From NCBI GenBank assembly GCA_001816585.1, contig MHCJ01000003.1, positions 156,228 to 220,227 on the forward strand: a stretch of DNA of 64,000 bases, given 5' to 3'. The notes below the pieces were generated by a model. The model was not told the origin of the DNA. It saw only the letters and a list, made by a program, of their open reading frames with translations, and ran no database searches. The stretch comes from Candidatus Chisholmbacteria bacterium RIFCSPHIGHO2_01_FULL_52_32. Lineage in GTDB: Bacteria; Patescibacteriota; Microgenomatia; UBA1400; Chisholmbacteraceae. Each line of letters opens with the position of its first letter. Position 1 is the first letter of the stretch. This document shows positions 804 through 56,200 of the stretch, piece by piece. Made by a program: the position numbers and the translations under genes.

Positions 804-935
804 TAGGGTATAGGGTTTAGGGTGTAGGGTATAGAGCATAGAGCATAGAGCATAGAGCATAGAGCATAGAGCATAGAGCGAAGGGCGTAGGGAAGAGAGT
901 TACGATTTAGGATTTACGAATTATCAATAAAACGA
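804..935. repeat. Heptamer-periodic degenerate tandem repeat block: (TAGGGTN)4 then (CATAGAG/TAGAGCA)x~7
   Basis: Direct reading gives tagggta tagggtt tagggtg tagggta tagagca tagagca ... in the rpsB-tsf spacer. The period is 7. Confidence 0.9.
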
Positions 936-969
936 AGGCTAAAGGTTAAAAGTACGGAGTAAAAAGCAA

Positions 970-1434
970 ATGACAAAAATTACCATCGAACAAATCAAGA
1001 AATTACGGGAGAAGACTGGGGTCGGGGTGATGGAGGCAAAGAAAGCCTTGGAGGAGGGCGGCGGGGATGAGAAGAAAGCCATTGCCTGGATTCAAAAGCA
1101 TGGGTTGATGAAGGCTGCCGCGAAAGCAAAACGGAAAGCCGGAGAAGGTCTGATTGCTTCCTATATTCACCATGGCGGCAAGGTTGCTGCTCTGGTTGAG
1201 TTCGCCTGCGAAACCGATTTTGTGGCGCGGACAGAGGAGTTTGGCAGGCTGGCACGAGAGCTTGCAATGCAGGTAGCTTCGATGGATCCCAAAGATGTAG
1301 CGGAACTCCTGAAGCAGGAGTACATTCGGGAGGTAGGGAAAACAGTAGAACAGTTGATTGCCGAAGTAGTGGGAAAAACCGGTGAAAAGATTGAGGTCAA
1401 ACGATTTGTACGGTGGGAGTTGGCGGAGAAATAA
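970..1434 (+). CDS. tsf: Elongation factor Ts, short form
   Basis: 154 aa. The N-terminal UBA-like motif is ITIEQIKKLREKTGVGVMEAKKALEE. It sits directly after rpsB. Confidence 0.9.
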   Translation: MTKITIEQIKKLREKTGVGVMEAKKALEEGGGDEKKAIAWIQKHGLMKAAAKAKRKAGEGLIASYIHHGGKVAALVEFACETDFVARTEEFGRLARELAMQVASMDPKDVAELLKQEYIREVGKTVEQLIAEVVGKTGEKIEVKRFVRWELAEK

Positions 1435-1555
1435 GCAAGGGCTCCACTTCGTTTCATATTCACTCTATCTGTGCCTGTGTTCTCAAATCGCTCCACTCAA
1501 AGGGGGCATTGAGCATGGTTGAAAGAAACCTATAATATGGTATACTGCGCGTCAT

Positions 1556-2206
1556 ATGACGAGTGTTGAAGATGAGCTGAGGACACTTCGCGAACAACAG
1601 CTGCAGGAACGAGTAGAGCAGATGCGTCGAGAGGAGGCTTCCAAAAAGGCGCTTCAGCAGAAGGCCGATCTTCTGAATACCGAAGCCAGACGGCTACTTG
1701 CTCCATACGTCGAGGCCGTGAAACGGTCCCGTTGCGTTGAAGCGATGCAGGAGTTGGCCTTGAGCGAAGGATTATCAATCAAAGACCCTGAGTTGGCTTC
1801 ACCCGATGTCTCGTTCTTTGTGGCTTTTAAGCCGATTGAGGGGCATAGAGGTGCACAAGATCACTGGTACGAGAGATTTCGTGGTTTAGACCTGGCCGGA
1901 GGATTTTATTGGGATAGTTTCAAAGTTCAAAAACTTAAGCCAGGTAATCTGCGACCACTCAGCGGGCAAGTCATGCTCGAATGGGGTTACTTCATGAAGC
2001 ATGTTGGTGGTGAGGACGAACCTCACTGGGACCAGATTCGATGTGTTTTCGATCAAGAGCGTACAGGATTTGTCATGACGGCTCGGACTGATCATGTAGG
2101 TGGGTACGGTCGGGAGCATTTCGTTGGACGACTTCACGAGCGCGGTTGGGGCAACCAGGCAGTTGAGCGTTTGGTCGCCCAGCTTTATCTACATGCGAAT
2201 ACTTGA
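1556..2206 (+). CDS. Hypothetical protein with an N-terminal coiled-coil, occupying the position usually held by pyrH
   Basis: 216-aa ORF between tsf and frr. It has no UMP-kinase motifs. The N-terminus is charged and heptad-like (LRTLREQQLQERVEQMRREEASKK). Confidence 0.55.
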   Translation: MTSVEDELRTLREQQLQERVEQMRREEASKKALQQKADLLNTEARRLLAPYVEAVKRSRCVEAMQELALSEGLSIKDPELASPDVSFFVAFKPIEGHRGAQDHWYERFRGLDLAGGFYWDSFKVQKLKPGNLRPLSGQVMLEWGYFMKHVGGEDEPHWDQIRCVFDQERTGFVMTARTDHVGGYGREHFVGRLHERGWGNQAVERLVAQLYLHANT

Positions 2207-2386
2207 AATACGGTCAGCGATCTGTTTCCTTAAATTCTTTTCGGACACCTTTCAGTATTTGAGTGATTGAATACACTGCTGACTCTTCTTTTCAGTTTCG
2301 CTATAATGGATGTTGTCCACCTTTGCCAAGTCTAACTTGGCTTCTGAGGATTTCGCACTATATTTTGTATTTCTTGAGGAGCTCAT

Positions 2387-2944
2387 ATGGACGACCCTCT
2401 CCTCGTACAGGCCCGAAATGATATGGAAGCGGTGTTGGATGTGGTTCGCGAGGATCTTTCCACTGTCAAAACCGGGCGGGCCAAACCGGCTCTGGTTGAG
2501 CATATTGAGGTTCTCGCCTACAATACCAAGATGCCGTTGATTGAGCTGGCAACGATTTCGGCACCTGACCCCCATCTGTTGGTAATTCAACCTTGGGATG
2601 AAACGGTTCTTGAGAATATTGCCAAAGCAATTGCGACATCGGATCTCCATTTGAACCCAGTGGTGGACCAGTCACTCATCCGTATCCAGATCCCTTCGCT
2701 GACTGAAGAACGGAGGGAGGAGCTGGTCAAGCTTGTTCACCAGAAACTTGAGAGCGGACGGGTGCTCCTGCGGCAGGTGCGGCAGGATGTGAAAAAAAAG
2801 CTTGAAGGGATGAAGGGGCAGCCCGGTGTTTCCGAGGATGATACGCACAGGCAGCTTGAGAATCTTGAGAAGGCAACCGAAGAGTTTATGGGGAAGATCG
2901 TCACACTAGGTGAGGAAAAAGAAGGCGAGCTGAGAACGGTATAG
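2387..2944 (+). CDS. frr: Ribosome recycling factor
   Basis: 185 aa with RRF-typical segments: VKTGRAKPALVEHIEV, LHLNPVVDQSLIRIQIPSLTEERREELVKLV and a C-terminal coiled-coil. Confidence 0.9.
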   Translation: MDDPLLVQARNDMEAVLDVVREDLSTVKTGRAKPALVEHIEVLAYNTKMPLIELATISAPDPHLLVIQPWDETVLENIAKAIATSDLHLNPVVDQSLIRIQIPSLTEERREELVKLVHQKLESGRVLLRQVRQDVKKKLEGMKGQPGVSEDDTHRQLENLEKATEEFMGKIVTLGEEKEGELRTV

Positions 2945-3060
2945 CAGATGGCGAATAGCAAATGGCTAATAGCTGACGGCTAATAGCTTATAACGAATAG
3001 CAGATAACAAATAGCGAAGAGCAAATAGCAGATAGCAGAAAGCAAATGGCGAATTGCGAG
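2945..3060. repeat. Heptamer-periodic degenerate repeat block (NGCNRAT family: agcagat ggcgaat agcaaat ggctaat ...)
   Basis: About 16 consecutive 7-nt units, read directly from the sequence. Confidence 0.85.
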
Positions 3061-3064
3061 TGAC

Positions 3065-3424
3065 ATGAGTTTTCGGTTTGAGGGTTTGGTGATTTGGAGT
3101 GGGTCGAACACTTTTGCTTCGAAGGTTTACAGATTTACCAAGTCCCTTCCTCGGAGTGAGCAATTCGGTCTGAGCGATCAGCTCAGACGAGCAGCGAATT
3201 CGATTCCGGTCAACATAGCCGAGGGCGCTGGAAGTGCGTCCAATAAAGATTTCGCCAATTTCTTAAACATTGCAATCCGTTCTATCTTTGAAGTAGTATC
3301 ATTGTTGTTTCGGTGCGAACAAGAAAGCTATCTTTCTCGCGCCCAGCGCGAACGGTTTTATCAAGAAGCGGAGCTCCTGGTGAAGCAAATCCAAGCCTTT
3401 CGAGCGAAACTCATTCAGCGCTAG
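3065..3424 (+). CDS. Four-helix-bundle protein (23S rRNA intervening-sequence protein / Avd-like family)
   Basis: 119 aa. The motif SDQLRRAANSIPVNIAEGAGSASNKDFANFLNIAIRSIFEV matches the TIGR02436/PF05635 four-helix-bundle signature. Confidence 0.7.
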   Translation: MSFRFEGLVIWSGSNTFASKVYRFTKSLPRSEQFGLSDQLRRAANSIPVNIAEGAGSASNKDFANFLNIAIRSIFEVVSLLFRCEQESYLSRAQRERFYQEAELLVKQIQAFRAKLIQR

Positions 3425-3470
3425 CTTTTTTTGGACTGTTACCATGTGCCATTAGCCATATGCCATACGC

Positions 3471-5078: not shown

Positions 5079-6350
5079 ATGAGACAGAGCCGGCTTTTTC
5101 CGAGGACCATCCGGAGAGAACCCGCAGGGGCGGAGAGTGTCAACCACAAGCTATTGGTACGGGCGGGATTCATCGATCAGCTGATGGCGGGGAGTTGGAC
5201 GCTCCTGCCGTTGGGTTGGCGGGTGGTGGCACGGATCAATCGGATCATTCGGGAGGAGATGAATGCCATAGGCGGACAAGAGATGCTCATGCCGCTTCTG
5301 CACCCGCGCTCAGTTTGGGGCGAGACCGGCAGATGGGGAAGTGCAAAAGATAACCCGCTTGGGGCCAAGGAAGTGATGTATCAATTTAAAGACATCAGAG
5401 GTCGCGAGTACGCGTTATCGTTTACCCACGAGGAGATCGTCATGGACTTACTGAGAAAGAGCATTCAAAGCTTCAAAGATTTGCCTGTTTCTGTTTATCA
5501 TTTTTCCACAAAATTTCGAAATGAACCGCGTGCGAGGAGCGGAATCTTGCGAGGTCGGGAGTTTTTGATGAAGGATCTCTATTCTGCACACGCCACCGAA
5601 GCGGACTTGATGGAGTATTACGAGAAAGTCAAGAATGCCTATTCAAAGATATTTTCGCGGCTTGGTTTTACCTATCGGGTAACAGAGGCTTCAGGAGGAG
5701 TATTCACCGAAAACAGGACTCATGAGCATCAAGTATTGGCAGACACCGGAGAAGACACTATTTTTTACTGTAATACCTGCGAATGGGGGCAGAATAAAGA
5801 GATATTTGAAGGAAAGGAAGGTGAACGGTGCCCGAGTTGTAAAAAGGGCAAAATTATCAAAGCGCGCTCGATTGAGGTCGGGAATATCTTCCCTTTGGGA
5901 ACGTGGTACGCAGAAAAGATGGGGGTTTTATACACGGATCGTGACGGGAAGAGAAAGCCGGTGTGGTTTGGCAGCTACGGTATCGGTCCTACGAGGGTTT
6001 TGGGGGCGCTCGTTGAGGTGTCTCATGATGAGAAGGGGATCATCTGGTTTCCGCAGGTAGCACCGTTTGCAGTTCACCTCATCGAAGTCAAAAGTCAAAA
6101 GTCAAAAGTCAAAAGTTTTGCAGAGGAGGTTTATAACAAATTGAGCGAAGAAAACATCGAGGTGTTGTGGGATGACCGTGATGTCGGGGCGGGGGAGAAG
6201 TTTGCCGACTGTGATTTAATCGGGATTCCGGTACGCCTCGTTGTCTCGGAAAAGACCGGGGAGATGGTTGAATGGAAGGATCGAACGGATGATCGTATCG
6301 AGCTTTTTTCACTTCACAGAGTGATTGACAGGTTGAAGGAAATGCAGTAG
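5079..6350 (+). CDS. proS: Prolyl-tRNA synthetase (short type lacking the editing domain)
   Basis: Start chosen at the MRQSRLFPRTIRREP ATG at 5079, because the ORF-track start at 5007 adds a non-conserved leader. Class II motifs are present, as is the C-terminal zinc region CNTCEWGQNKE...CPSCKKG. Confidence 0.9.
   Translation: MRQSRLFPRTIRREPAGAESVNHKLLVRAGFIDQLMAGSWTLLPLGWRVVARINRIIREEMNAIGGQEMLMPLLHPRSVWGETGRWGSAKDNPLGAKEVMYQFKDIRGREYALSFTHEEIVMDLLRKSIQSFKDLPVSVYHFSTKFRNEPRARSGILRGREFLMKDLYSAHATEADLMEYYEKVKNAYSKIFSRLGFTYRVTEASGGVFTENRTHEHQVLADTGEDTIFYCNTCEWGQNKEIFEGKEGERCPSCKKGKIIKARSIEVGNIFPLGTWYAEKMGVLYTDRDGKRKPVWFGSYGIGPTRVLGALVEVSHDEKGIIWFPQVAPFAVHLIEVKSQKSKVKSFAEEVYNKLSEENIEVLWDDRDVGAGEKFADCDLIGIPVRLVVSEKTGEMVEWKDRTDDRIELFSLHRVIDRLKEMQ
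6087..6114 (+). repeat. (GTCAAAA)x4 heptamer repeat embedded in the proS coding sequence
   Basis: Four perfect tandem copies encoding VKSQKSKVKS in frame. The unit belongs to the same family as the intergenic GTTNAAA repeats. Confidence 0.9.
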
Positions 6351-7375: not shown

Positions 7376-7603
7376 CTTTATATCATATTCATCGCTGCCT
7401 GCTTTGATTTCGTCTAGACCCCATACTCCATACTCCATACCCCTTTTTCCCACTTGTTCTTTTTTCGGCTTTTGACTATACTCGGTTTACCCGGTGAGGA
7501 TTATCCAAAAGCGAAGGAATTGTGGAATTATTTTTATTGGTGTGGGTTAAAGGTTTATGCTTTTTAAAAAAGCACGACCTTCAGGGGAGGGGGTTATGAC
7601 TCA

Positions 7604-8446: not shown

Positions 8447-8505
8447 CAGGCAGCGAATGGCGTATGGCAGATGGCGTATAGCATATGGCAAATAGTACGA
8501 AGAGG
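8447..8505. repeat. Heptamer repeat block (NGCNRAT family)
   Basis: Direct reading gives agcaggc agcgaat ggcgtat ggcagat ggcgtat agcatat ggcaaat. Confidence 0.8.
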
Positions 8506-11574: not shown

Positions 11575-11690
11575 TAGAGAGCAAATGGCGTATGGCAGAT
11601 GGCGTATAGCGAATAGCGAAGAGGATAGAGAAAATTTCTAATTCCTAATTCCTAAACCCTAATAAGCTAATAAGCTACAAGCTACTTTCC
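11575..11690. repeat. Heptamer repeat block (NGCNRAT then CTAATNC/AAGCTAN families)
   Basis: Direct reading gives agcaaat ggcgtat ggcagat ggcgtat agcgaat ... ctaattc ctaattc ctaaacc ctaataa gctaata agctaca agctac. Confidence 0.85.
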
Positions 11691-11742: not shown

Positions 11743-12363
11743 ATGAGAATTCCCAAAGCAGTCGAAAAGCTCGTTGCAGCTTTCGAGCGGCTTCCGGGGA
11801 TCGGCCCAAAAACCGCGCAACGGTTGACGTTTTATCTTCTCCACGTTCCACAGACTGAACTTGATCGCTTTGCGGAAGCGGTGAAGGATCTTCAGGCAAA
11901 GACGAAGGTTTGTTCGCTTTGCTTTAACGTAGGTGAGGCGGATCCCTGCGAGATTTGCTCTGATTACTCTCGAGATAAAAGCACGATTCTCGTGGTTGAA
12001 GAACCTCTGGATGTCCTGGCGATTGAACGGAGTGATGGCTATCACGGTCTTTACCATGTCTTACATGGTAGAATAGAGCCCCTCCGAAATATCGGGCCTG
12101 AGGAACTTCATCTTCATGACTTGCTTCCTCGAGTCAAAGATGGTAGCATCAGTGAACTTATTTTGGCGACCAACCCGACGATGGAGGGTGAGGCGACGGC
12201 GATGTACATTGCGAAATTAATTCGGGAGGACAAAGTGCAAAGCGCAAAGGGTAAAGCGTTACAAATCACCAGAATCGGGAGGGGGTTGCCCGTCGGAGGG
12301 GATCTTGAGTATGCGGATGATGTGACTCTGGCGCGGGCGCTCGAAGGGAGGAAGGAGTTTTAA
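11743..12363 (+). CDS. recR: Recombination protein RecR
   Basis: 206 aa. The HhH motif is LPGIGPKTAQRL, the C4 zinc finger is CSLCFNVGEADPCEIC, and a Toprim region follows. Confidence 0.95.
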   Translation: MRIPKAVEKLVAAFERLPGIGPKTAQRLTFYLLHVPQTELDRFAEAVKDLQAKTKVCSLCFNVGEADPCEICSDYSRDKSTILVVEEPLDVLAIERSDGYHGLYHVLHGRIEPLRNIGPEELHLHDLLPRVKDGSISELILATNPTMEGEATAMYIAKLIREDKVQSAKGKALQITRIGRGLPVGGDLEYADDVTLARALEGRKEF

Positions 12364-15009: not shown

Positions 15010-15084
15010 GATAGTTAAAAGTTACAATTCAAAGTTTAAAGTTCTGAGAACAATATTATTACTCATAGTTAACACTTTTATACC

Positions 15085-16163: not shown

Positions 16164-17594
16164 ATGAGAATCTATAACACCCTATCCAGGAAGATTGAGG
16201 AGTTCGCGCCCATCAATCCTCCCGCGGTCGGGATGTATACCTGCGGGATGACGGTCTACGATTTTGCTCATATCGGACACGGTCGCAAGTACGTCGGTGA
16301 CGATATCCTGCGGCGGACCCTGGCGTATTTGGGATACACGGTGACCCATGTTCAGAATGTGACTGATGTCGGGCATCTCTCTTCCGACGCGGATTCCGGC
16401 GAGGACAAACTGGAAAAGGGAGCGAAGAAGACGGGGAAGAACGTTTGGGAAGTGGCCGAGGAATTCACCACCCATTTTTATAAGTCTATGGATGCCCTGA
16501 ATGTTTTGCGGCCGGATATCATTTGCAAAGCGACTGATCACATCAAGGAACAGGTTGATTTGGTTGGGCGACTGGTTGCAAAAGGTTTTGCCTATGATAC
16601 ATCCGAGGCAGTGTACTTTGATATTTTAAAGTTTCCCTCTTATGCTCGATTATTCGGTCAGAAACTAGAAGAAAAGAAGACCGCAGCACGAAGTGAGGTA
16701 AAAACAGGAGTTCATAAAAAACACCCGGCGGATTTTGCGCTGTGGTTTAAGCGGGTCGGTCGGTTTGCCGATCACTCCATGCATTGGGAGAGCCCCTGGG
16801 GAGATGGATTCCCGGGATGGCATATCGAGTGTTCGGCAATGAGCATGAAATATCTTGGCGATTCGTTTGATATTCATACGGGCGGCACTGACCATATCTC
16901 CATTCACCACCCCAACGAGATTGCACAGAGCGAGGCGGCAACGGGAAAGCCCTTCGTGCGGTACTGGGTGCACCATGCGTTCCTCATCGTGGATGGGAAA
17001 AAAATGAGCAAGAGCTTGGGGAATATCTACACGATCACGGATGTCAAAGCAAAGGGGTTTGATCCGTTGGCTCTGCGGTATTTGTATTTGACGACCCACT
17101 ACCGGAAACTGTTGAACTTTACTTGGGAGGGGCTTGAAGCTGCGGCCAAAGGTTTGGAGCGGTTGCGGGAAGTGATGGCGCAGTTTCGCGAGGCACGGGA
17201 GCGGACGATGCTGTCAGCAGATAAGTTAGCAAAGGTGGACCTGCTGCGGAAGAAATTTACTGAGGCGATTTCCGATGATCTTTCGATGCCCGAAGCTTTG
17301 AGCGTGGTTTGGGAAGTAGTCAAGACCAACATTCCGGGGTACGATAAGTATGACCTACTTTTGGATTTAGACCAGGTGTTAGGACTCAATTTAGCGTCTA
17401 GCGTTCAGCATTCAGCGTCTAGCGTAGTGATTCCAGAAGATGTTGTAAACTTGGTTAATAGAAGGGAAGAGTTGAGAAGGGTGAAGAAGTTCGCGCAAGC
17501 GGACGAAGTGCGCAAAGCAATCGAGAAGAAGGGATTCGCGGTGGAGGATCGGCCGGAGGGGGCGAGAATAAAACAATTAAAAATTACATTTTAG
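16164..17594 (+). CDS. cysS: Cysteinyl-tRNA synthetase
   Basis: 476 aa with the class I HIGH-like [15 protein letters not shown] and KMSKSLGN motifs. A heptamer repeat is embedded near the C-terminus at 17392-17426. Confidence 0.95.
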
Positions 17595-17697
17595 GCGTGA
17601 CTTTGTGATCTACAGCAACTTTATCTCACCTTGAAAGGTCTAACCTTGCAAGGTGGATAGAATTTACTAAACCCTATACCCTATACCCTGAGTCTTT

Positions 17698-18363
17698 ATG
17701 CCTGAACAGAAACAAGATTGGTGGAAGGTCGTCAGTTTGCTTTTAATTCTGGTGACTCTCGCTAATGTATTGGTTTTGGATTACGTGGTGGGGAAGGGAA
17801 AGGATACTTCGGGAACGACTGCGCCGCTTGGAGGGTTGGAGGAGAGGATCGCCTCGCTTGTGACGAGACAACAAGCGCTGGAATCGGCAGTAACCGATAT
17901 TGCAACATTTTCCGCTTTGCCTGTGGCATTACCAACCACGGCACCTTCCGTCGTTGAGAAGACCGTGGTTGAGCGGGTGGTTACACAAGCGCCGAGTTCG
18001 ACGGTGAAGGAGTTCTATATTCCTCTTGGGCAGGCGGCGGCACAAACAGAGAATTTTTCCTGGGTCGATACGGGTGCGGAGGCAACGTTTGATATCGCAA
18101 ATTACGGCAGTGTCAAGGAAGTGAACTTTGAGGCAACCCTTTCTTCCCCGGAGGGACAGGTGGAGGTGAGGCTGTATAACGTTTCTGATAAAAACGCGAT
18201 TTATGGGAGTACGATCGTGGGAGATGCTCAGGATCCGAAGCTCTATCGGTCTTCAAACTTGGTATTACCAGGGGGGCAAAAGACCTACAGAGTTCAGATG
18301 CGCACATCGGTGAAGGTTCTCGCGACGATGCACTCGGGCAGAATACGCATACTCCTCAAGTGA
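17698..18363 (+). CDS. Hypothetical membrane-anchored or secreted protein
   Basis: 221 aa with an N-terminal TM/signal-anchor (WWKVVSLLLILVTLANVLVL) and a Ser/Thr/Val-rich extracytoplasmic region. Confidence 0.55.
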   Translation: MPEQKQDWWKVVSLLLILVTLANVLVLDYVVGKGKDTSGTTAPLGGLEERIASLVTRQQALESAVTDIATFSALPVALPTTAPSVVEKTVVERVVTQAPSSTVKEFYIPLGQAAAQTENFSWVDTGAEATFDIANYGSVKEVNFEATLSSPEGQVEVRLYNVSDKNAIYGSTIVGDAQDPKLYRSSNLVLPGGQKTYRVQMRTSVKVLATMHSGRIRILLK

Positions 18364-18396
18364 TGTACAGGTCGCACCTGTACATCGGGGTTTTTC
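18364..18396 (+). terminator. Intrinsic terminator candidate (9-bp perfect stem tgtacaggt / acctgtaca, then a T-run)
   Basis: The hairpin lies 1 nt after the stop at 18363 and is followed by tcggggtttttctc. Confidence 0.6.
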
Positions 18397-18447
18397 TCGA
18401 AGCTTGTTTCTTGTGAGAGAGGCCGTTTCTCTCTATAATGCCGAATC

Positions 18448-19632: not shown

Positions 19633-19733
19633 CGGAAAAAACGGTTATCGGAACGAAAGTGGACACTGGCGTAACTACCGCGTTACAGTGTGCGGTAGTT
19701 GTGCGGGTGAGAGCGGGGTGGCGGAAGGATAGA

Positions 19734-19757
19734 GGGGTTCGTCTTTTCCCCTTGTTT
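19734..19757 (+). terminator. Terminator-like hairpin (gggg-ttcgtctttt-cccc) followed by ttgtttt
   Basis: Read directly in the spacer after the carbamoyltransferase gene. A separate 9-bp perfect hairpin lies upstream at 19684-19711. Confidence 0.45.
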
Positions 19758-19789
19758 TACCCTTGGTAAGCGGTTAGAATTTCCCTCAA

Positions 19790-20761: not shown

Positions 20762-21134
20762 GGGAATAAGAGGCGATCCGCAGGCCCCGAATGTCTATCA
20801 ATTTTCTGCCCTGGCTGTGGTTCGGGACGCAATTCCTGATACAGAAGAGAGGGTAGGGGAATTCGCTCACGGGATTATCAAAGGGCTTCATCTTACGGCT
20901 TTGCAAAAAAGCTCATTCCGGTTTCACCCGAGCGGAATGACCATCGTTTTTATACTTTCCCAATCGCATCTTGCAATCCATACTTGGCCGGAATACCGGA
21001 GTGTCCATATTGATTTGGTGAGTTGTGTGCCGCTCCGGAAAGCGGAGGTTTTAGCGTGTTTTCGTGAGGTTTTTAGGCGGTTTGGCATTGAGCGGTTTAT
21101 TTTCAAGACAGAACGGATGACAACGGGGATTTAG
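20736..21134 (+). CDS. speH: S-adenosylmethionine decarboxylase proenzyme (SpeH-type, pyruvoyl-dependent)
   Basis: 132 aa. FHPSGMTIVFILSQSHLAIHTWPEYRSVHIDLVSC aligns with the SpeH processing and active-site region (..[26 protein letters not shown]). Gln replaces the usual Glu before the cleavage Ser. Confidence 0.8.
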   Translation: MTEQSTRVKGIRGDPQAPNVYQFSALAVVRDAIPDTEERVGEFAHGIIKGLHLTALQKSSFRFHPSGMTIVFILSQSHLAIHTWPEYRSVHIDLVSCVPLRKAEVLACFREVFRRFGIERFIFKTERMTTGI

Positions 21135-21138
21135 GAGT

Positions 21139-33039: not shown

Positions 33040-33120
33040 GCGGAGTTTACTGGAGGTGGAGATTGTAGAGATTAGAGGATGTTAGAGGAGATCAGAGGAG
33101 GTTAGAGGAGGAAATAGAGC
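33040..33120. repeat. Decamer/heptamer degenerate repeat block (TTAGAGGAGN family)
   Basis: Direct reading gives gattgtagag attagaggat gttagaggag atcagaggag gttagaggag g. Confidence 0.8.
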
Positions 33121-36005: not shown

Positions 36006-36145
36006 GAGGAGTGAGGGGGATAAGTTAAAAATTCAAAGTTAAAAGTTAAAAATTACAATTCAAAATTAAAAGTTTCTCTCCTAACTTGTAACTTTAAACT
36101 GCAACTTTGAACTTTACACTTTACACTTTAAACTTTTTACCCCTA
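36006..36145. repeat. Inverted heptamer-repeat block: (GTTNAAA)n followed by its reverse-complement (AACTTTN)n
   Basis: The forward part is gttaaaa attcaaa gttaaaa gttaaaa attacaa ttcaaaa ttaaaag. The reverse part is aacttgt aacttta aactgca actttga actttac actttac actttaa. The block could fold into a long imperfect hairpin. Confidence 0.85.
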
Positions 36146-36163
36146 TACCCTAACCGATATCTT

Positions 36164-38997: not shown

Positions 38998-39061
38998 GCG
39001 AGCGGAGCTCGCTCAGTTAAAAGTTTAAAGTTCAAAATTTAAAGTTATCCCAGTGCCAGCT

Positions 39062-41250: not shown

Positions 41251-41329
41251 AGAGAAAATAAATTACAAATTACAAATACGTGACAAACTTCAAGTTACAA
41301 ATTTCTTTGAAATATTGCAATGGGGATAC

Positions 41330-41703: not shown

Positions 41704-42915
41704 TCAGGAATGCTTTGTCGTGTTTTTCTTCCGGTAGATCGCGAGGGCCTTTTTGATGATTTCAACAGAACGGGCGAGGGCGCGGGAGTTGAGGACGTAG
41801 GCGATACGGACTTCGTCTTTGCCATGGTTTTTCGAGAGGTAAAAGCCATCTGCGGGGGCGAGCATGACCGTTTCGCCCCGGTCGCGGAAATCCGTGAGCA
41901 ACCACTTGGCAAAGGCTTCTGCATTTTTGACCGGAAGTCTAGCAACACAGTAGAAGGCTCCTTCCGGCTTTTGCACGAAGACCCCTGGGATTTTTTGCAA
42001 AGCCCTAATGAGAACATTCCGTCTTTTCTTGTACTCGCGGTTGACTTTGGCAAAGTAGCTGGTTTGGGTTTTGAGGGCTTCTACAGCTGCGTATTGTTCG
42101 ACTGACGGAGAGGCAAGTCTGGCTTGGGCGAACTTTGTCACTGATTCCAGGATTTTCTGATTATATGTTACCAAGCAACCCAAGCGTGCTCCGCAGAGGC
42201 TATACCGTTTTGAGAAGCTGTCAACCAAGATGACGTGCCGCGGTGTTTTTCCGTAGGTGAGAAGACTTTTGGGCAGAGTCCGTTCATAAGCAAACTCCCG
42301 ATAGGTTTCATCGGAGATCACGAACAACTCATGTTTGATGGCAAGGTTGTTGACCATGGCAAGCTCTGAAGGTGTGTAGAGGGTTCCGGTTGGATTATTG
42401 GGGTTGTTGATGATGATCGCCTTGGTGTTCGAAGTGATGTGGCGTTTGATCACATCAGGGCGGGGGAGGTGAAAGCCAGTCTCAGCACGTGTGGTGATGG
42501 CTCGAAGGCTAACCGCGGCCATCGCGGCAAAGCCAAGGTAGTTCGCGTAGGTCGGCTCAAAGACGAGCAGTTCATCTCCCGGATCGCAGGTTGCGAGAAT
42601 CGCGAAGAGGATCGCTTCGGATCCTCCGGTTGTGACGATGATGTTCTCAGGGTCTGCGGGAATACCAACGCCATGGTAATAGCTTGCCAGTCCCAAACGG
42701 AGCTTGGGGTTCCCGAGGGAATTCTCATAGGCAACAACTGACTTCGGATAGGAACGGATGGCTTTGAGGAATTTCGGAGGAGATTTAATATCCGGTTGGC
42801 CGATGTTGAGGTGGTAGATCTTTACCCCTTGTTTGGTTGCCGCATCTGCGAAGGGAACCAGCTTTCGGATAGGGGAGGCAGGGGTGATGACGGCGCGGCG
42901 GGAGATGGATGGCAT
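41704..42915 (-). CDS. Pyridoxal-phosphate-dependent aminotransferase, class I (aspartate/aromatic aminotransferase-like)
   Basis: 403 aa. The PLP-lysine motif is SFSKRYSLCGARLG, with an upstream NPxNPTG-like NPNNPTG. Confidence 0.85.
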   Translation of the reverse strand: MPSISRRAVITPASPIRKLVPFADAATKQGVKIYHLNIGQPDIKSPPKFLKAIRSYPKSVVAYENSLGNPKLRLGLASYYHGVGIPADPENIIVTTGGSEAILFAILATCDPGDELLVFEPTYANYLGFAAMAAVSLRAITTRAETGFHLPRPDVIKRHITSNTKAIIINNPNNPTGTLYTPSELAMVNNLAIKHELFVISDETYREFAYERTLPKSLLTYGKTPRHVILVDSFSKRYSLCGARLGCLVTYNQKILESVTKFAQARLASPSVEQYAAVEALKTQTSYFAKVNREYKKRRNVLIRALQKIPGVFVQKPEGAFYCVARLPVKNAEAFAKWLLTDFRDRGETVMLAPADGFYLSKNHGKDEVRIAYVLNSRALARSVEIIKKALAIYRKKNTTKHS

Positions 42916-42924
42916 ATGGCTTAT

Positions 42925-43014
42925 GGCTGATGGCTAATGGCTGATGGCTAAATGCTTATAGCATAGGGGAGGGAGAATATCTAATTTCTAAACCCTAAAC
43001 CCTAAACCCTATCT
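42925..43014. repeat. Heptamer repeat block ending in a telomere-like (CCCTAAA)3
   Basis: Direct reading gives tggctta tggctga tggctaa tggctga tggctaa ... ctaaaccctaaaccctaaaccct. Confidence 0.85.
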
Positions 43015-43924
43015 CCCTTCTTCTCGGTTTGTATTCCGTGAGGAAGACGCCTAGGGCGATAAGGATGGCACCGACGAGAAAGGGGAAGGTGATAGGTTCT
43101 CCCAGCCAGAAGATTGCCAGAGGCGCGGCAAACAGGGGTTGAAGATAGACAAACAGAGCTGTTTCTGAGGCCTCGATGGTCCTTAAGCCCACGTAGTGGG
43201 TGTAGTAAGCAATAAGGTACGAGAAGATCGCCATGAAGCCAATGCCTAAGAGTGCGCCTGAGTTGGTGAGAACCAAACGGACCTCAGCAGGTGCCAGGAA
43301 GTTCGGATTTTCCCAGAGTGCCAGGGGAAGAAAAGTTGCGAGGGCGACGAACGACGACCAGGCTGTATGGAGAAATGGAGGGTGCTTGCGGAGATCCTCT
43401 TTGGCGATCAGGGTGTAGGCGGCCCATTCGATGCCTGCCGTAAGGATCAACAGGTTCCCGATGAGGTTTTGTCTGGCGAAAGCAGCCTCTTCCAGGAACG
43501 GTTGCAGGATGGTGACGGTCGTGCCGGTTATGGCGATTGCCAGGCCGATCCTCTCGATTTTCGTGACTTTTTCTTTGAGAAACATGACTCCGCCGATGAC
43601 AATGAAAATCGGGGTGAGGCTGTTTATCAGGGTTCCGTCCAGGGCACTGGTCTTATCGAACCCGAGAAAAATGAGCCCCAGGTTGATCGTGGTGGCGAGG
43701 ATCGCAAGGAAGGTGAGCTTCGGAAGGTCTTTGATTCGGATGGAATTTTTCCTAAGGTGCCAGATAAATGGGAGCACAATCACAAGTGAAGAGAGCAGGA
43801 AACGGTAAAAAAGGAAGGTGAATGGAGGAACGAAACCTAGGGTGAATTTGATCACGGGGCCGGCAAACCCCCAAATGGCTGTGGCGATTAAGAGGGCAAT
43901 GTAGGCAGAGCGTCTCTTTGGCAT
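42995..43924 (-). CDS. DMT-superfamily (EamA-like) transporter
   Basis: 309 aa with 10 TM helices and two EamA-like halves (IATAIWGFAGPVIKF...). Confidence 0.8.
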   Translation of the reverse strand: MPKRRSAYIALLIATAIWGFAGPVIKFTLGFVPPFTFLFYRFLLSSLVIVLPFIWHLRKNSIRIKDLPKLTFLAILATTINLGLIFLGFDKTSALDGTLINSLTPIFIVIGGVMFLKEKVTKIERIGLAIAITGTTVTILQPFLEEAAFARQNLIGNLLILTAGIEWAAYTLIAKEDLRKHPPFLHTAWSSFVALATFLPLALWENPNFLAPAEVRLVLTNSGALLGIGFMAIFSYLIAYYTHYVGLRTIEASETALFVYLQPLFAAPLAIFWLGEPITFPFLVGAILIALGVFLTEYKPRRREIGFRV

Positions 43925-46520: not shown

Positions 46521-46692
46521 AGATGGGGTGTCAGGATATTGGCCGTTCCGGCAGAACAGGAGGATAGCGGAGGGTACTCTAACAAATGAGTCTCGTATTG
46601 TCAAGAAAACCGGGCTGTGATAGGATGCAAGATAGTTTAAAGTGTAAAGTTCAAAGTGAAAAGTTTGTCTTCCTGTCTTTTCACTGACAATC

Positions 46693-47355
46693 ATGGACAT
46701 TACGTACCTTGGGCACAGCTGTTTTAAGCTTCGCGGGAGAGAAGCGAGCTTAGTCACCGATCCCTATGCGTCTTCGGTTGGCTTTGCCATGCCGCGCGTC
46801 TCTGCTGACATCGTAACGGTATCTCATTTCCATAAGGATCACTGCTACACCTCGGGCGTGTCCGGCACCGCGCGCCGAACAGAACCGTTTTTGATTCAAG
46901 CTCCCGGAGAATATGAAATCTCCGGCATCTCTGTGTTCGGCGTGTCCTGCTTCCATGACGGGAAAAGTGGGACAGAAAGAGGGAAGAATACCGTTTTTAC
47001 CATTCATGTAGATGACGTTTCGATTGTTCATCTCGGGGATCTGGGGCATCGGCTTTCCGACCAAGAGATAGAGGCGATGGGGAGCTGTGATATCCTGCTT
47101 GTTCCGGTCGGAGGCGTTTATTCCCTTGACCCGAAGGAGGCGATCGAGGTCGTAAACCAGCTTCAACCTGCTGTGGTTATTCCCATGCATTACCGAACAC
47201 CGAAGCATAATCCAAAAGTTTTCGGCAAATTGGCAACCCTTGAAGATTTCCTTCATGAAGGCGGATTTGAGCAGGCAGCGCGAACGGAAAAGTTGACGCT
47301 CGCAAAGGGGAGTCTACCCAGTGAAATGGAAGTGGTGGTGCTAGAGAAAAGTTAA
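46693..47355 (+). CDS. MBL-fold metallo-hydrolase (UPF0173-like)
   Basis: 220 aa with the metal-binding motif VSHFHKDH and downstream HLGD and PMHY motifs. Confidence 0.85.
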   Translation: MDITYLGHSCFKLRGREASLVTDPYASSVGFAMPRVSADIVTVSHFHKDHCYTSGVSGTARRTEPFLIQAPGEYEISGISVFGVSCFHDGKSGTERGKNTVFTIHVDDVSIVHLGDLGHRLSDQEIEAMGSCDILLVPVGGVYSLDPKEAIEVVNQLQPAVVIPMHYRTPKHNPKVFGKLATLEDFLHEGGFEQAARTEKLTLAKGSLPSEMEVVVLEKS

Positions 47356-47440
47356 AAGTGAAAAGTGAAAAGTGAAAAGTTAAAGAGAGAGGAAGAAGCA
47401 CAGGGTGGCGGAGACGGAAGAGTTAAAAGTTTAAAGTTCC
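47352..47440. repeat. Heptamer repeat block (GTTNAAA/GTGAAAA family)
   Basis: Direct reading gives gttaaaa gtgaaaa gtgaaaa gtgaaaa gttaaag ... gttaaaa gtttaaa gtt. Confidence 0.85.
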
Positions 47441-49159: not shown

Positions 49160-49315
49160 GTTATCTCACGGGGCGCGTCTGCCCGCCTCGCGTCAACTCG
49201 TCTCCGCGAGTCGAGGCGGGCCAATTCCGCCACCTCGGCCTGGTTATCTATTGGCAATTGGCAAACTGTCTTTCTTCTGGTATTTTACCAAAATATTTTT
49301 TATAATTCTTTCCTT

Positions 49316-49876
49316 ATGATTTCAGTGACTAAACTGCGCGTCGGCGTGACCTTTGAACACCTGGGGGATCCCTGGAGGGTGATCGAATATAAGCATGTCC
49401 ATCTCTCCCGGGGGTCGGGGACGATCACGGTTCGGGCGCGGAACCTTCGTACGGGCAATGTTCAGACTCTCGCATTCCGATCTGGCGATCGGGTGGAGGA
49501 TATTTCGGTCGAGCGACGTTTGCTTACTTATCTCTACAAAGATGGGGACTGGTTGGTATTTATGCATCCTAGGAACTTTGAGCAATCCATGGTTCCCTTA
49601 CACGGGGTCGGAGAAGGGATCCGATTCGTGGTGGAAGGGCAGGAGGCATGGGTGCTGTTTTGGGAAGAAAAGCCGCTGGATGTTGAAATTCCCCCTAAAG
49701 TGACTCTTGAGGTCGCGGAGGCCAGTCCCGGCGTTCGGGGTGATACCGTCGCAGGGGCAACAAAGGATGTCGTCCTCATTACGGGCATGCATCTTCGGGT
49801 TCCATTATTCATTCATAAGGGAGACCGTGTGGTTGTGGATACGAGGACCGGGAAGTACGTAGAAAGAGCAAGTTAA
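49316..49876 (+). CDS. efp: Elongation factor P
   Basis: 186 aa, start at MISVTKLRVG. The three OB/KOW-like domains align with EF-P (..TYLYKDGDWLVFMHPRNFEQ.., GDTVAGATK, VDTRTGKYVERAS). The loop residue that aligns with E. coli K34 is Arg, in HLSRGSG. Confidence 0.85.
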   Translation: MISVTKLRVGVTFEHLGDPWRVIEYKHVHLSRGSGTITVRARNLRTGNVQTLAFRSGDRVEDISVERRLLTYLYKDGDWLVFMHPRNFEQSMVPLHGVGEGIRFVVEGQEAWVLFWEEKPLDVEIPPKVTLEVAEASPGVRGDTVAGATKDVVLITGMHLRVPLFIHKGDRVVVDTRTGKYVERAS

Positions 49877-49990
49877 AAGTTAAAAGTGAAAAGTTATAAA
49901 TTACAATTTAAAATTTAATATTTCTCTGTCAACTTGGAACTTTAAACTGCAACTTTGAATTTTGCACTTTAAACTTTAAATTTATTGACC
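49862..49990. repeat. Inverted heptamer-repeat block: (GTTNAAA)n then reverse-complement units, then GACCCTG repeats
   Basis: The forward part is gttaaaa gttaaaa gtgaaaa gttataa attacaa tttaaaa. The reverse part is aacttgg aacttta aactgca actttga attttgc actttaa actttaa. It has the same architecture as 36006-36145. Confidence 0.85.
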
Positions 49991-50020
49991 CTGGACCCTG
50001 AGAAGCTACAAGCTAAAAAG

Positions 50021-54155: not shown

Positions 54156-54314
54156 CGAACAAACAGAGAAGGTAGCCGGTAATTACCCTGTACTTCAAGC
54201 GAGAAGCTGTGATCCTTTCATAGGTTTACCAAGGCCTATGTGACTGGCGAAATTTGTTCCGCGCTCTCCTTCTGAAGGTTCCAATGTACGAAACTCGTAT
54301 GATACGATAGAACT

Positions 54315-55373
54315 ATGACCAAACGGAGACTGCCCCTCCGGCACGTTAAGGGTGCTTCACACGGCCGCCAAGCCAAACATGGCTATGAACGTATTCAACG
54401 CGGCCGCCGTGTCCTTGCGCATCTCCCATTTGTACGGTTTTCCTTCCGGTTTATCGCGGTTGTCTTCCTTTTCACGCTGGCTATTTTGACCATTCGATTG
54501 ATTTCCCAAAGTGACTGGAACGGCCGGGATCGTATCACGTTTACTTTGCAGGACTTTTCAGAGAGTCAGGTTGGCGGGGAAGTGTTTCTGGTGTCGTACC
54601 TTCCGCCCGAAGGGCTGTCGGTTGTTGTGCTTCCCGCAACACTTCAAATTGAGACCATCGGCGGTTTTGGCCTCTGGAAAGCAGGCTCTGTCTATCAGCT
54701 CGGGGAGCTCGAGGGGAGGGGAGGTGCGCTTCTCTCCGGGACACTAGCTGAATTTTTCGGTGTCAATGTGGACGGGTGGGTGGTTTCTCCTGAGAAAGTT
54801 CAGCTCTCATCAGACACATTGAAGACGTCATTAAAGACATCGCTTATGAGGACTCTGTTCGGAAGGGGACGGTCCAATTTGGGAGTCTGGGATCTTTTCC
54901 GTCTGTGGTTTTCGCTTGGGAAGGTACGCTTAAGCCAGGCAACGCTGGTCGATCTCTCCACCGCTTCGGTGCTTCGTGAGGAAACGCTTCCGGACGGAAG
55001 TACGACCTATCGAACCGACCCGGAGCGGCTTGATCAGCTCGCCCGGCGACTGTTTGCTTTGCCTGAGATTACCAGAGAGGGGTTATCCGTTTCGGTTCTC
55101 AACGCCACCGGACATCCGCGACTTGGCAACCGAGCGGCCCGGGCGATTGAGAACTCTGGCGGGGATGTCGTGTCTATCGCTGACTTTAGGACGCTGGAGG
55201 AGCAAACCACGATTGTGGTTTCTTCCGATTCACTCCGCGAGTACGCAACCGTAGGGGTTCTTCGGAAGTTTTTTGCCTCTGAGAGGGTCTCTGTTGGGGA
55301 GACTGCTTCAGCGCGGGCTGACATTCTGCTCGTTGTTGGTGAAGACTACTTCAGGAAGCTTTCGGAATTTTAG
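54315..55373 (+). CDS. LCP-family (LytR-CpsA-Psr) cell-envelope phosphotransferase with LytR_C domain
   Basis: 352 aa with an N-terminal TM anchor. The LCP core is ITFTLQDFSESQVGGEVFLVSYLPPEGLSVVVLP...GVNVDGWVV, and the C-terminal LytR_C-like region is VSVLNATGHPRLGNRAARAIENSGGDVVSIADF. Confidence 0.7.
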   Translation: MTKRRLPLRHVKGASHGRQAKHGYERIQRGRRVLAHLPFVRFSFRFIAVVFLFTLAILTIRLISQSDWNGRDRITFTLQDFSESQVGGEVFLVSYLPPEGLSVVVLPATLQIETIGGFGLWKAGSVYQLGELEGRGGALLSGTLAEFFGVNVDGWVVSPEKVQLSSDTLKTSLKTSLMRTLFGRGRSNLGVWDLFRLWFSLGKVRLSQATLVDLSTASVLREETLPDGSTTYRTDPERLDQLARRLFALPEITREGLSVSVLNATGHPRLGNRAARAIENSGGDVVSIADFRTLEEQTTIVVSSDSLREYATVGVLRKFFASERVSVGETASARADILLVVGEDYFRKLSEF

Positions 55374-55388
55374 GCTGCAGCTTTTCTG

Positions 55389-56096
55389 TCAACTCTCGTC
55401 TATCCCTTCTCCCGTTTCCCGAATATCTACCGGCTCTTCTTGAAATACGCTCGGATTAATGTCTGCGTAGTACATCGTGTGCGAAGTTGGTGGGAAGGAG
55501 GGAATGTTTTTGAAGCGGGTACTTTTTTGGGTTTCCCGGATAAAGACTTGTACGTTACTTCCTTCGAGGCCTTTGACGAAGACGTCGTACCGGTTCCCTC
55601 CATGGATAAACTTCCGTAACCTGTAGGAAAGGTCGTCGGGCAATGACCCGATGTAGACATCTTCGGGGGCTTTTACCGCGATGAGTCTTCGTTTTGCGTC
55701 GAACATGAGCGACTGACCAATCTTTAACTCGGCGAGGATATCGGCATCCGCCAGGCGGACGAGTTGGGCAGTTTTGGTTTTCCCTGGTTCCTCCAAGAAA
55801 TTGGCGTAGATGGGTGGAGATTTGATAATGCGGTTTTCTGCCGTTTGAGGTCGTTTGGCCTTGAGGCGTTTGAGATTTTTCGTGGCTATCGGATTGTATT
55901 TATCGAGTGTCAGGACCTGTTTGTAGGTGTCAAAAGCTCTTCCTGTTTCTCCAAGCTCTGTAAAGGCACGTGCAAGACGGTTGAGCGAGTCGAGGTCGCG
56001 AGGGTCCTCCTTGAGGATTTGGTGGTTTAACTCTACCGCTTCCTCCCATTTTCCCTTGAGAGCAGCTTGGATGGCTTTTTCGCTTAGGCTTTGCAT
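55389..56096 (-). CDS. TPR-repeat protein with a C-terminal domain of unknown function
   Basis: 235 aa. The N-terminal ~90 aa show TPR-like helices (WEEAVELNHQILKEDPRDLDSLNRLARAFTELGETGRAFDTYKQVL). Confidence 0.5.
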   Translation of the reverse strand: MQSLSEKAIQAALKGKWEEAVELNHQILKEDPRDLDSLNRLARAFTELGETGRAFDTYKQVLTLDKYNPIATKNLKRLKAKRPQTAENRIIKSPPIYANFLEEPGKTKTAQLVRLADADILAELKIGQSLMFDAKRRLIAVKAPEDVYIGSLPDDLSYRLRKFIHGGNRYDVFVKGLEGSNVQVFIRETQKSTRFKNIPSFPPTSHTMYYADINPSVFQEEPVDIRETGEGIDES

Positions 56097-56147
56097 TTCC
56101 TTTACGCTACATTAGATTGAACAGACCTGTCAAGAGTGTTACACTAA

Positions 56148-56200
56148 AGCAAGTTAAAAGTTCAAAGTTAAAAGTTTAAAGTTACAACTCAAAATTCAAG
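56148..56200. repeat. Heptamer repeat block (GTTNAAA family)
   Basis: Direct reading gives gttaaaa gttcaaa gttaaaa gtttaaa gttacaa ctcaaaa ttcaagg. Confidence 0.85.

Follow-up and report, generated by a model that had tools for sequence, protein, structure and literature searches.

What are the tandem arrays of 7-nt units that lie between the housekeeping genes of a small bacterial genome, and how did they come to be there? The question is raised by a stretch of 64,000 nt (hereinafter the window) from Candidatus Chisholmbacteria bacterium RIFCSPHIGHO2_01_FULL_52_32 (GenBank assembly GCA_001816585.1, contig MHCJ01000003.1), a member of the Candidate Phyla Radiation (CPR)/Patescibacteria, whose gene content is ordinary housekeeping (rpsB-tsf-frr-rseP-proS, dnaX-ybaB-recR, rpsF-ssb-rpsR, efp, dnaB, and gyrA). 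A sequence-only reading had noticed in its spacers several families of repeats with a period of 7. Following these up, we found that the arrays form three or four dispersed families, and that one family encloses, as a pair of complementary arms, the gene for an S23p protein, an anatomy that recurs around S23p genes of unrelated bacteria. S23p (PF05635/TIGR02436) is a very widespread small protein that is known mainly from the intervening sequences (IVSs) of 23S rRNA and as the Avd partner of the reverse transcriptases of diversity-generating retroelements (DGRs); we know of no function for it.

The periodicity itself is real. Tandem Repeats Finder (TRF) recovered about 25 period-7 arrays in the window, at or within a few bases of the coordinates listed earlier. 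The autocorrelation analysis that the sequence-only reading had proposed bore it out: in intergenic DNA the same-base autocorrelation at lag 7 was 0.327, against 0.2645±0.0054 in dinucleotide-preserving shuffles (z=11.5), with harmonics at lags 14 (z=8.6), 21 (z=5.3), and 28 (z=3.8); the same statistic gave no lag-7 signal in the coding DNA of the window. With a lag-7 run defined as at least 11 of 14 lag-7 matches, 27 runs covering 945 nt were counted; none of the other lags from 4 to 12 exceeded 8 runs or 218 nt. The resulting density of 14.8 nt/kb is about tenfold that of 1.22 Mb of unrelated bacterial rpsB loci, matching the window at no more than 50% identity in rpsB, which were used as controls (1.5 nt/kb), and heptamer arrays make up about 1.5% of the window DNA. 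The richest control locus, at 23 nt/kb, comes from the cyanobacterium Microcoleus (L083; loci from other genomes are cited by such numbers); it presents the same picture as the window arrays and, since it fits the known heptamer repeats of cyanobacteria, serves as a positive control. An assembly artefact, a worry raised at the outset, is ruled out by independent assemblies of this population (NCBI GCA_001816955.1, ENA, JGI, and Logan), in which the arrays are identical. Identity to the window is 99.995-100% throughout, including for contig MHCM01000003.1 of GCA_001816955.1 (Candidatus Chisholmbacteria bacterium RIFCSPLOWO2_01_FULL_50_28, from an aquifer metagenome), whose rpsB product is the same as that of the window.

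Between frr and rseP, the arrays and a gene form a compact cassette of three features:

2941..3059, + strand: family B array (ATAGCNN/ATGGCNN, 17 units), running from the frr stop codon (TRF, 2941-3054); 5' arm of the S23p cassette
3065..3424, + strand: gene for an S23p or '23S rRNA intervening-sequence protein' four-helix bundle of 119 aa (PF05635, TIGR02436, PDB 2GSC)
3439..3470, + strand: 3' arm of the S23p cassette, a short reverse-complement family B array, NNGCCAT x3.5-4 (TRF, lag-7 runs, RNA folds, RNA duplex)

The product of the enclosed gene matches PF05635 (E-value 4.6e-31), TIGR02436 (104.7 bits against a cutoff of 24), and the structure 2GSC of Xanthomonas XCC0516 (E-value 3.6e-14). 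The same layout, with ATAGC/ATGGC-type units upstream and GCTAT/GCCAT-type units downstream, is seen at the syntenic loci L120 and L121-124, as well as around a 56%-identical S23p homologue that lies in another genomic context (L125). The arms pair around the open reading frame (ORF) in both the minimum free energy and the centroid RNA folds of all three loci folded (window, L121, and L120), and the arm-arm RNA duplex is more stable than in shuffles at the window (z=-2.3; -33 kcal/mol), L120 (z=-4.1), L121 (z=-5.9), and L125 (z=-4.0). The site itself is the frr-rseP spacer and not helix 25 or 45 of a 23S rRNA gene. In the relatives L092, L093, and L094 this spacer measures 6-17 nt and holds no array, and the cassette is present in the more distant L121 (frr 64% identical); it is thus gained or lost together with its arms, as one indel unit. 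The S23p proteins of the window and L121 are 72% identical although the adjacent frr genes share only 64%, and the intermediate relatives L092 and L094 have no cassette, a contrast that points to either lateral transfer into one and the same site or several precise losses. A family HMM run on six-frame fragments detected no S23p remnant near the other arrays of the window, and no S23p homologue occurs among the ORFs of 80 control loci. S23p had no match to a known defence gene in PADLOC, the called genes of the window include no reverse transcriptase, and no template/variable repeat pair lies nearby.

The association extends far beyond this lineage. We collected 80 further S23p loci from metagenomes, of which 76 have a definable ORF, are non-redundant, and range in GC content from 0.30 to 0.64; no rRNA or any other Rfam match was found in the 40 of them that were scanned. 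In the 60 nt adjoining the S23p gene the lag-7 autocorrelation stands at 0.384 upstream and 0.404 downstream and falls to 0.24-0.27 beyond 180 nt, with lags 6 and 8 staying at 0.28-0.31; the heptamer periodicity is limited to about the first 100 nt on either side. Strong lag-7 windows occur in 21 of 75 upstream and 28 of 72 downstream flanks, compared with 1 of 120 control windows. The TRF arrays within 100 nt of the gene are dominated by periods of 7 (43 arrays) and 14 (23), with one of 21, as against 12 of period 8, 3 of period 6, and 5 of period 9; their density is about 3.0/kb near the gene and 0.31/kb farther off, and 46 of the 76 loci have an array with a period of 7 or a multiple of it on at least one side. 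The two flanks are, moreover, complementary: inverted comparisons gave Smith-Waterman scores of at least 30 at 26 of 71 loci (none of 71 when shuffled), and an RNA duplex z below -2 was obtained at 41 of 71 (2 of 61 controls). They are also polar, the GC skew of the sense strand being positive in 29 of 32 5' arms and negative in 30 of the 35 3' arms with non-zero skew (36 arrays, one of them zero). In both arms the median array length is 4.4 units (about 31 nt). Where a contig has further arrays, these match the arm unit at a distance of at most 1 in 16 of 33 cases (2.8% expected across contigs). S23p is co-oriented with both neighbours at 33 of 47 loci, with gaps of about 60 nt, a proportion only modestly above that due to gene clustering alone. 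An independent set from IMG/VR showed the same inverted-arm arrangement in 5-6 of 8 loci. The general anatomy of S23p loci in unrelated bacteria is thus a purine/G-rich heptamer array, the S23p ORF, and a complementary C-rich array. An incomplete literature search, which is not proof of novelty, turned up no paper linking S23p genes as a whole to heptamer repeats.

The remaining arrays of the window belong with those of the cassette in a small number of dispersed families, the main ones being A (AAGTTAA/AAGTGAA/AAGTTCA, 8 loci), B (ATAGCNN/ATGGCNN, 5 loci), and C (TAGGGTN, 4 loci). These arrays, with the other repeats found, are:

802..929, + strand: composite array in the rpsB-tsf spacer, in a single 7-nt register (TRF, register view)
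6085..6116, + strand: perfect AAGTCAA x4.6 inside proS (TRF)
7418..7445, + strand: CCATACT-type array (reverse complement AGTATGG, B-like) in the spacer between cofD and hyp280 (TRF, lag-7 runs)
8450..8498, + strand: solo family B array in the hyp280-HIT spacer (TRF, 8457-8495; exact 27-mer in common with 11584-11610)
11578..11677, + strand: composite in the ybaB-recR spacer (TRF, including 11581-11620), in the order family B x7, linker, CTAATTC/CTAAACC (family C reverse complement), 8-mer CTAATAAG x2.4
15012..15046, + strand: weak family A array (AAGTTAA type), below TRF score; 90% identical over 31 nt to 36044-36074
17667..17694, + strand: CTATACC x3.3 (family C, reverse complement), adjacent to the start of the following gene (TRF; 17-23 nt inverted match to 804-827)
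33068..33111, + strand: decamer GAGGTTAGAG x4.4, period 10, directly upstream of ychF (TRF)
36022..36151, + strand: ORF-less palindromic element, copy 1, in the ssb-rpsR spacer (TRF, 36022-36136; 83.8% identical over 130 nt to copy 2, E-value 9e-37)
39015..39049, + strand: solo family A array after htrA (TRF, 39015-39046; BLAST)
41258..41278, + strand: short AAATTAC x2.6 array in the prf-rpmE spacer (TRF, lag-7 runs)
42908..43011, + strand: composite of family B (NATGGCT x8), linker, and perfect CTAAACC x3.4 (TRF, 42908-42951 and, at 100%, 42988-43011)
46634..46665, + strand: family A array in the divergent spacer upstream of an MBL-fold gene (TRF, 46634-46664; BLAST)
47346..47439, + strand: two family A arrays in the MBL-dnaB spacer, GAAAAGT x5.6, which holds the MBL stop codon, and AGTTAAAAGTTTAAAGTTC (TRF, including 47346-47384; shared k-mers)
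49870..49999, + strand: ORF-less palindromic element, copy 2, from the efp stop codon (TRF, 49870-49984; BLAST)
56151..56199, + strand: solo family A array 8 nt upstream of yebC (TRF, 56151-56194; 90% identical to 36022-36070)
63045..63075, - strand: weak family A units (GAAAGTT type) upstream of gyrA, seen in the sequence and below the TRF threshold

Most of the blocks in the earlier list were thus recovered by TRF; those at 15010-15045 and 63043-63075 fall below its score, the former still being assignable to family A by BLAST. The earlier list had too many families. The TAGGGTN and TAGAGCA repeats of the rpsB-tsf spacer form, together with the degenerate units that follow, one continuous 7-nt register: TAGGGTN x4.4 (804-834; called by TRF as TAGGGTA x4.4), seven perfect copies of TAGAGCA (832-880; called at 831-879 as ATAGAGC x7.0 at 100%), and degenerate units including TTACGAT/TTAGGAT (900-923). 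Likewise, CATACTC is the reverse complement of AGTATGG, a unit resembling ATGGCNN. Neither is the period strictly 7, as had been claimed: a period of 8 occurs at 11659-11677 and one of 10 at 33068-33111, where the decamer noted earlier is indeed present. Lying next to the ychF start codon, that decamer, GAGGTTAGAG, amounts to several tandem GGAGG Shine-Dalgarno-like motifs.

Blocks longer than one unit recur at separate loci with their variant units in the same order. An exact 27-mer is common to 8456-8482 and 11584-11610, and 17-22-mers are shared between other arrays; the composite at 11578-11667 recurs at 42908-43011 as a B array, linker, and CTAAACC array (74% identity over 77 nt, 11585-11661 versus 42930-43004). 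A 130-nt element occurs twice at 84-89% identity, at 36022-36151 between ssb and rpsR and at 49870-49999 after efp. Such multi-unit blocks and the shared 130-nt element show the arrays to be dispersed repeat families rather than independent products of local slippage. The first copy of the element consists of a family A arm (36022-36074), a 15-nt loop, and an inverted arm (36090-36137), with an RNA-fold z of -1.3; the second has a family A arm, a 20-nt loop, and an inverted arm, with a minus-strand RNA-fold z of -2.8. Strong hairpins whose stems are inverted heptamer arrays, with no S23p ORF in the loop, were also observed in a Eubacteriales metagenome-assembled genome (L042, 1660-1915, z=-13.6), in Microcoleus (L083, 10840-10930, z=-4.9), and in the patescibacterial relative L092 (18130-18275, z=-4.7). 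Within family B, positions A1, C5, and mostly G4 are kept and positions 3, 6, and 7 vary.

The arrays are less pervasive than first thought. They had been said to fill almost every spacer of at least 100 bp; with called genes, 13 of the 34 spacers of at least 100 nt and 16 of the 50 of at least 50 nt carry one. The stretch from 18 to 35 kb has no array in any of its roughly 20 spacers, and the 10 kb preceding the window (L001, 1-9912) are likewise free of them. The distribution is patchy, regions near the array-free stretch at 18000-35000 having arrays in about half of their spacers. Among called-gene spacers no bias to any type was apparent (tandem-plus 9/30, tandem-minus 2/6, convergent 2/6, divergent 3/8). 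Arrays in spacers comprise 3-17 units, and many begin between -9 and +18 nt from the upstream stop codon; at frr, efp, MBL, and EamA the first unit contains this codon. Families B and C follow no orientation rule relative to transcription, both orientations occurring. Genes of the window are mostly on the plus strand, on which the array units are mainly purine-rich; the GC skew is +0.08 to +0.23 over the first 58 kb and declines to roughly 0 to +0.07 over the final 6 kb. Lag-7 runs inside called genes comprise those in proS (6085-6116), recR (12227-12259), and cysS (17392-17425) and two of 21 nt. The proS array is read in frame as KSQKSKVKS. Compared with L093 it amounts to an insertion of 5 aa, and L092 has a degenerate version of it; the array has so been domesticated as a linker.

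The window has several other features of note. An exact 20-nt inverted match, CCCGCCTCGACTCGCGGAGA, joins 33962-33981 and 49201-49220; the copy in the 3' part of ychF lies in a local hairpin and looks like an in-frame insertion. The other is next to tRNA-Leu, within 49160-49243, which resembles a tRNA gene without being called by ARAGORN; it looks as if a tRNA gene had received a GC-rich hairpin of about 35 nt. The two copies may represent another small hairpin element, unrelated to the arrays. A stretch of 1.1 kb (58323-59447) upstream of a Xer-type integrase gene (59448-60446), which abuts gyrA, has no called gene, and its GC content drops to 0.46; this may be the edge of an integrated element, and no credible Rfam match was found in the gene-poor stretch at 58-59.5 kb. 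The Rfam scan of the window returned tRNA-Leu only and no rRNA. A MazE-like antitoxin and a Fic-domain gene form a pair with a 1-nt overlap at 31600-32273.

A comparison of copy number across relatives, suggested earlier as a sign of active slippage, gave opposite answers at two time depths. Among 28 same-species contigs from many samples (99.3-100% identity, up to 26 SNPs in 3.8 kb, or 0.7%; consensus assemblies, several of which break inside arrays), none of those spanning a listed array showed a change in unit number; the 802..929 array, for one, is identical in every contig that spans it. The only array-flagged differences were one SNP and one 2-nt insertion, each in one contig, in a marginal 21-nt run at 49244-49264. 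Active slippage or phase variation is accordingly rejected at the level of these consensus contigs, there being no unit-number change even with up to 0.7% SNPs, and it follows from this constancy that the arrays are not contingency loci. Their neighbours are housekeeping genes (rpsB, tsf, frr, efp, ssb, dnaB, yebC) and not surface or virulence genes. Short-read assemblies were observed to end exactly inside arrays (at about 860, at 36079-36110, at 43002, and at position 1 of L120), either because the repeats tangle the assembly graph or because consensus contigs hide minority length variants.

Between species, by contrast, the arrays do change. The array at the frr stop codon has 17 units in the window, 6 in L120 (frr 90% identical), and 8 in L121-124. 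The family A array at the efp stop codon is kept, though variable, in L206 (efp 79% identical; solo, 5 units) and L207 (68%; degenerate inverted arm), and the rpsB-tsf array has an orthologue in L120. The suggested slippage on a 7-nt register is therefore supported over evolutionary time and not as a present-day process in the population. The relatives L092 and L207 use units partly different from those of the window: the hyp280-HIT spacer of L092 carries arrays of another family (GAAATNC), the MBL-dnaB spacer of L207 an inverted CGAAATN/TTTCGAA pair, and the L207 orthologue of the spacer that holds 46634..46665 upstream of the MBL-fold gene AAATTAC x5. Elsewhere in L092, L093, and L094 the orthologous spacers are mostly short, with no array.

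Several familiar identities could be set aside. As the sequence-only reading had held, this is not CRISPR: the units are 7 nt long and contiguous, where CRISPR has 21-48-nt repeats with unique spacers. The plant-type telomere unit to which it drew attention is present, in 3.4 copies of CTAAACC, but its identity is a coincidence; any relation to telomeres is ruled out for what is a family C variant, internal in a 1.16-Mb contig, that overlaps the EamA stop codon (and is G-quadruplex-capable on the minus strand). Intrinsic terminators are likewise ruled out, in that the direct arrays, as RNA, are predicted to be unstructured (z of 0 to +1.3) and have no U-tract; terminator-like sites are not above shuffle expectation, and none was found in the array-bearing spacers of the first 20 kb. 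The homology with Avd raised the idea of DGR-like adenine mutagenesis, which the variable sites do not support (A 11.5%, C 15.5%, G 8%, T 7.5%). The sequence-only reading had also denied any kinship with repetitive extragenic palindromes (REPs) or miniature inverted-repeat transposable elements (MITEs); this is only half right, in that the arrays are dispersed families with shared multi-unit blocks, including the imperfect intergenic palindromes at 36022-36151 and 49870-49999, a trait of REPs, bacterial interspersed mosaic elements (BIMEs), and MITEs. No defined termini, target-site duplication, or cognate transposase (REP-associated tyrosine transposase [RAYT] or insertion sequence [IS]) were seen within the 64 kb.

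As a class, heptamer repeats are already known; what this case adds is the CPR host, the dispersed-family structure, and the general link to S23p arms. In bacteria they have been known since 1990, as the short tandemly repeated repetitive (STRR) sequences of cyanobacteria (Mazel 1990, as cited in PMC4692102 and PMC4679880), and a 2007 survey found heptamers to be the most over-represented class of long simple sequence repeats (SSRs) (Mrazek, as cited in PMC4679880 and PMC4692102); according to these two papers they have no established origin or function. The window arrays resemble STRRs and long SSRs in their head-to-tail 7-nt units, few to tens of copies, several families per genome, mostly intergenic position, lineage-specific units, and inverted pairs; they differ in their CPR/Patescibacteria host, non-canonical units, dispersed copies with multi-unit blocks, and inclusion of the arms of an S23p cassette. 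An incomplete literature search found no report of heptamer repeats in Patescibacteria.

By their sequences, the window arrays are best described as STRR-like and not as STRRs in the strict sense: none of the consensus units matches the canonical STRR units CCCCAGT, TTGGTCA, and CAACAGT.

With the Xanthomonas GGGAATC and Nostoc GGGGAYT heptamers (Rehm et al. 2015, PMC4692102) they share fixed degenerate positions, a size of about four units, positions near ORF ends, some inverted pairs, lengths that vary between related species, and no tie to phase-variable genes; they differ in that only family C is G-rich, so that a G-quadruplex (G4) cannot cover A and B. The TAACTGA repeats of Beggiatoaceae (MacGregor 2015, PMC4679880) are similarly abundant intergenic direct heptamers by housekeeping genes, including ribosomal protein genes, but consist of one unit, mostly 1 to a few nt upstream of start codons and in forward orientation, whereas the window has several families in both orientations that usually run from the upstream stop codon. 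The closest parallel to the cassette is found in 23S rRNA IVSs (Coxiella, Leptospira, Brucella, and others; PMC4990558), which have a PF05635 ORF within inverted repeats, a stem of about 28 bp, and a poor or absent Shine-Dalgarno sequence. In that of Coxiella, the S23p ORF is accompanied by inverted repeats whose 28-bp stem is cleaved by RNase III and, in the 5' part, by tandem GACAGAT heptamers in strain-dependent number; that IVSs are mobile is an old idea, and the elements are regarded as selfish (PMC4990558). Unlike these, the cassette occupies the frr-rseP spacer, and no rRNA match was found at the 40 further S23p loci scanned either; both of its arms are multi-unit heptamer arrays; the same families are dispersed without an ORF; and cleavage by RNase III is here assumed by analogy. 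Avd has S23p in the same four-helix-bundle family (PF05635), but nothing else of a DGR is at hand: neither a reverse transcriptase nor a template/variable repeat pair lies nearby, and the variability of the arrays is not adenine-specific. With REPs, BIMEs, and MITEs the likeness is in short, dispersed, intergenic, imperfectly palindromic sequences in several copies; the stems of tandem heptamers set the window elements apart from them.

On balance, we lean towards the view that the window arrays are arms of an IVS-like selfish element family, present in paired, ORF-less, or solo form. The first state would be that of paired arms around an ORF, as at 2941-3470; the second that of paired arms without one, as at 36022-36151 and 49870-49999; and the solo arrays elsewhere would be derivatives of the same element family. 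In read-through transcripts the arms would pair into a stem of about 28-40 bp that, to judge from Coxiella and Leptospira IVSs, might be cut by RNase III. The number of units would drift by replication slippage, 7 nt being favoured, over evolutionary time: the 17, 6, and 8 units of orthologous arrays show drift between species, and a stem of tandem repeats, which can re-pair in shifted registers, would tolerate it. Many units contain TAG, TAA, or TGA, which a period of 7 places in all three frames, so that invasion of the 3' ends of genes would be harmless and the arrays may be tolerated beside genes partly for this reason.

Several observations weigh against this view. Only family B is tied to S23p in the window, and no S23p gene or remnant accompanies families A and C within the 64 kb. 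Most window arrays are solo, with no stem possible, and as direct arrays are predicted to be unstructured; the two ORF-less elements score modestly as hairpins (z=-1.3 and -2.8); and the composites at 11578-11667 and 42908-43011 join families that are not complementary. Elsewhere, about 30 of the 76 S23p loci (some 40%) have no TRF-detectable array with a period of 7 or its multiples. Causality might run the other way, with S23p cassettes inserting into or recruiting pre-existing arrays. No terminal target-site duplication was identified, and the period of 7 is not accounted for; periods of 8 also occur, so that the preference is soft. Finally, transcription, RNase III cleavage, and mobility are presumed.

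The leading rival would treat the arrays as plain long SSRs, functionless products of in-place slippage favouring 7 nt (as proposed by Mrazek in 2007, cited in PMC4679880 and PMC4692102), with the S23p link a by-product of permissive spacers. The abundance of heptamers among the long SSRs of many bacteria, as cited in the same two papers, speaks for it, as do the unit-number differences between orthologous arrays, the perfect x7 block at 832-880, and heptamer-rich controls such as Microcoleus L083 that have no S23p gene in the 20 kb fetched. Slippage alone, however, would not lead one to expect the inverted pairing, strand polarity, and tenfold local enrichment at 76 unrelated S23p loci, nor multi-unit blocks and a 130-nt composite common to distant loci; with no length polymorphism in the population and empty frr-rseP sites devoid of any array, we consider it unlikely. 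Distinctly less probable to us is that the arrays are cis-acting RNA or DNA platforms on which a host protein with a 7-nt register (an RNA binder of the S1/CspA/CsrA type, a nucleoid protein, or S23p itself) tunes the expression or mRNA fate of neighbouring housekeeping genes. A similar role was proposed for the TAACTGA repeats of Beggiatoaceae, and direct arrays predicted to be unstructured, purine-rich single strands abutting the stop or start codons of rpsB, frr, efp, ssb, dnaB, and yebC would suit it, as would the retention of arrays in some orthologous spacers despite a change of family and, at the efp stop codon, in three species. But families B and C run both with and against transcription, arrays are missing from most orthologous spacers of relatives, and units differ between close relatives in a way that a conserved reader would not tolerate; even the position-specific variation of family B (A1, C5, and mostly G4 kept; 3, 6, and 7 variable), which seems to favour a reader, can also arise by amplification of higher-order repeats of two to four units (TRF periods of 14, 21, and 28).

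Movement at the DNA level, with REP/BIME- or MITE-like hairpins carried as single-stranded DNA by a RAYT or IS200/IS605-type transposase encoded elsewhere and S23p as a passenger, would fit the dispersal of the elements, their multiple intergenic copies, and their imperfect palindromes, as well as the strong heptamer-array hairpins of other genomes (L042, z=-13.6; L083, z=-4.9; L092, z=-4.7). We regard it as very unlikely, given that the sole recombinase of the window is the Xer-type integrase (59448-60446), with no transposase, and that neither target-site duplications nor defined termini were seen; the strand polarity and mainly sense orientation of S23p (33/47, a modest excess) point instead to RNA-level or transcription-linked constraints. 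That the arrays should be G4 regulatory elements, as proposed for the Xanthomonas and Nostoc heptamers, we hold to be extremely improbable: four G3 tracts with 4-5-nt loops are present at 804-834 (GGG N4 x4) and on the minus strand of 42988-43020, and about four units is indeed the typical array length (PMC4692102), but these are the only two sites with such potential, and families A and B and most S23p arms elsewhere, which cannot form G4, have the same length and arrangement.

If the arrays are arms of an IVS-like selfish element family, as we favour, a bolder extension suggests itself, which we put forward as a speculation and think unlikely to hold as a whole. The heptamer excess of many bacteria (STRRs, Xanthomonas, Beggiatoaceae, and this CPR genome) would be the footprint of one widespread selfish family, whose autonomous form would be an S23p gene within inverted heptamer arrays; S23p, as an Avd-like pentameric four-helix bundle, would recognise or maintain the array hairpins, possibly on RNA released by RNase III, and solo arrays and ORF-less hairpins would be its non-autonomous members. 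Were the link only a shared preference for permissive spacers, the finding would reduce to a new host for a known repeat class. In either case the phenomenon is extended to a small CPR genome. The link to S23p, as read here, joins two open problems, the nature of heptamer repeats and the function of S23p, and makes both testable.

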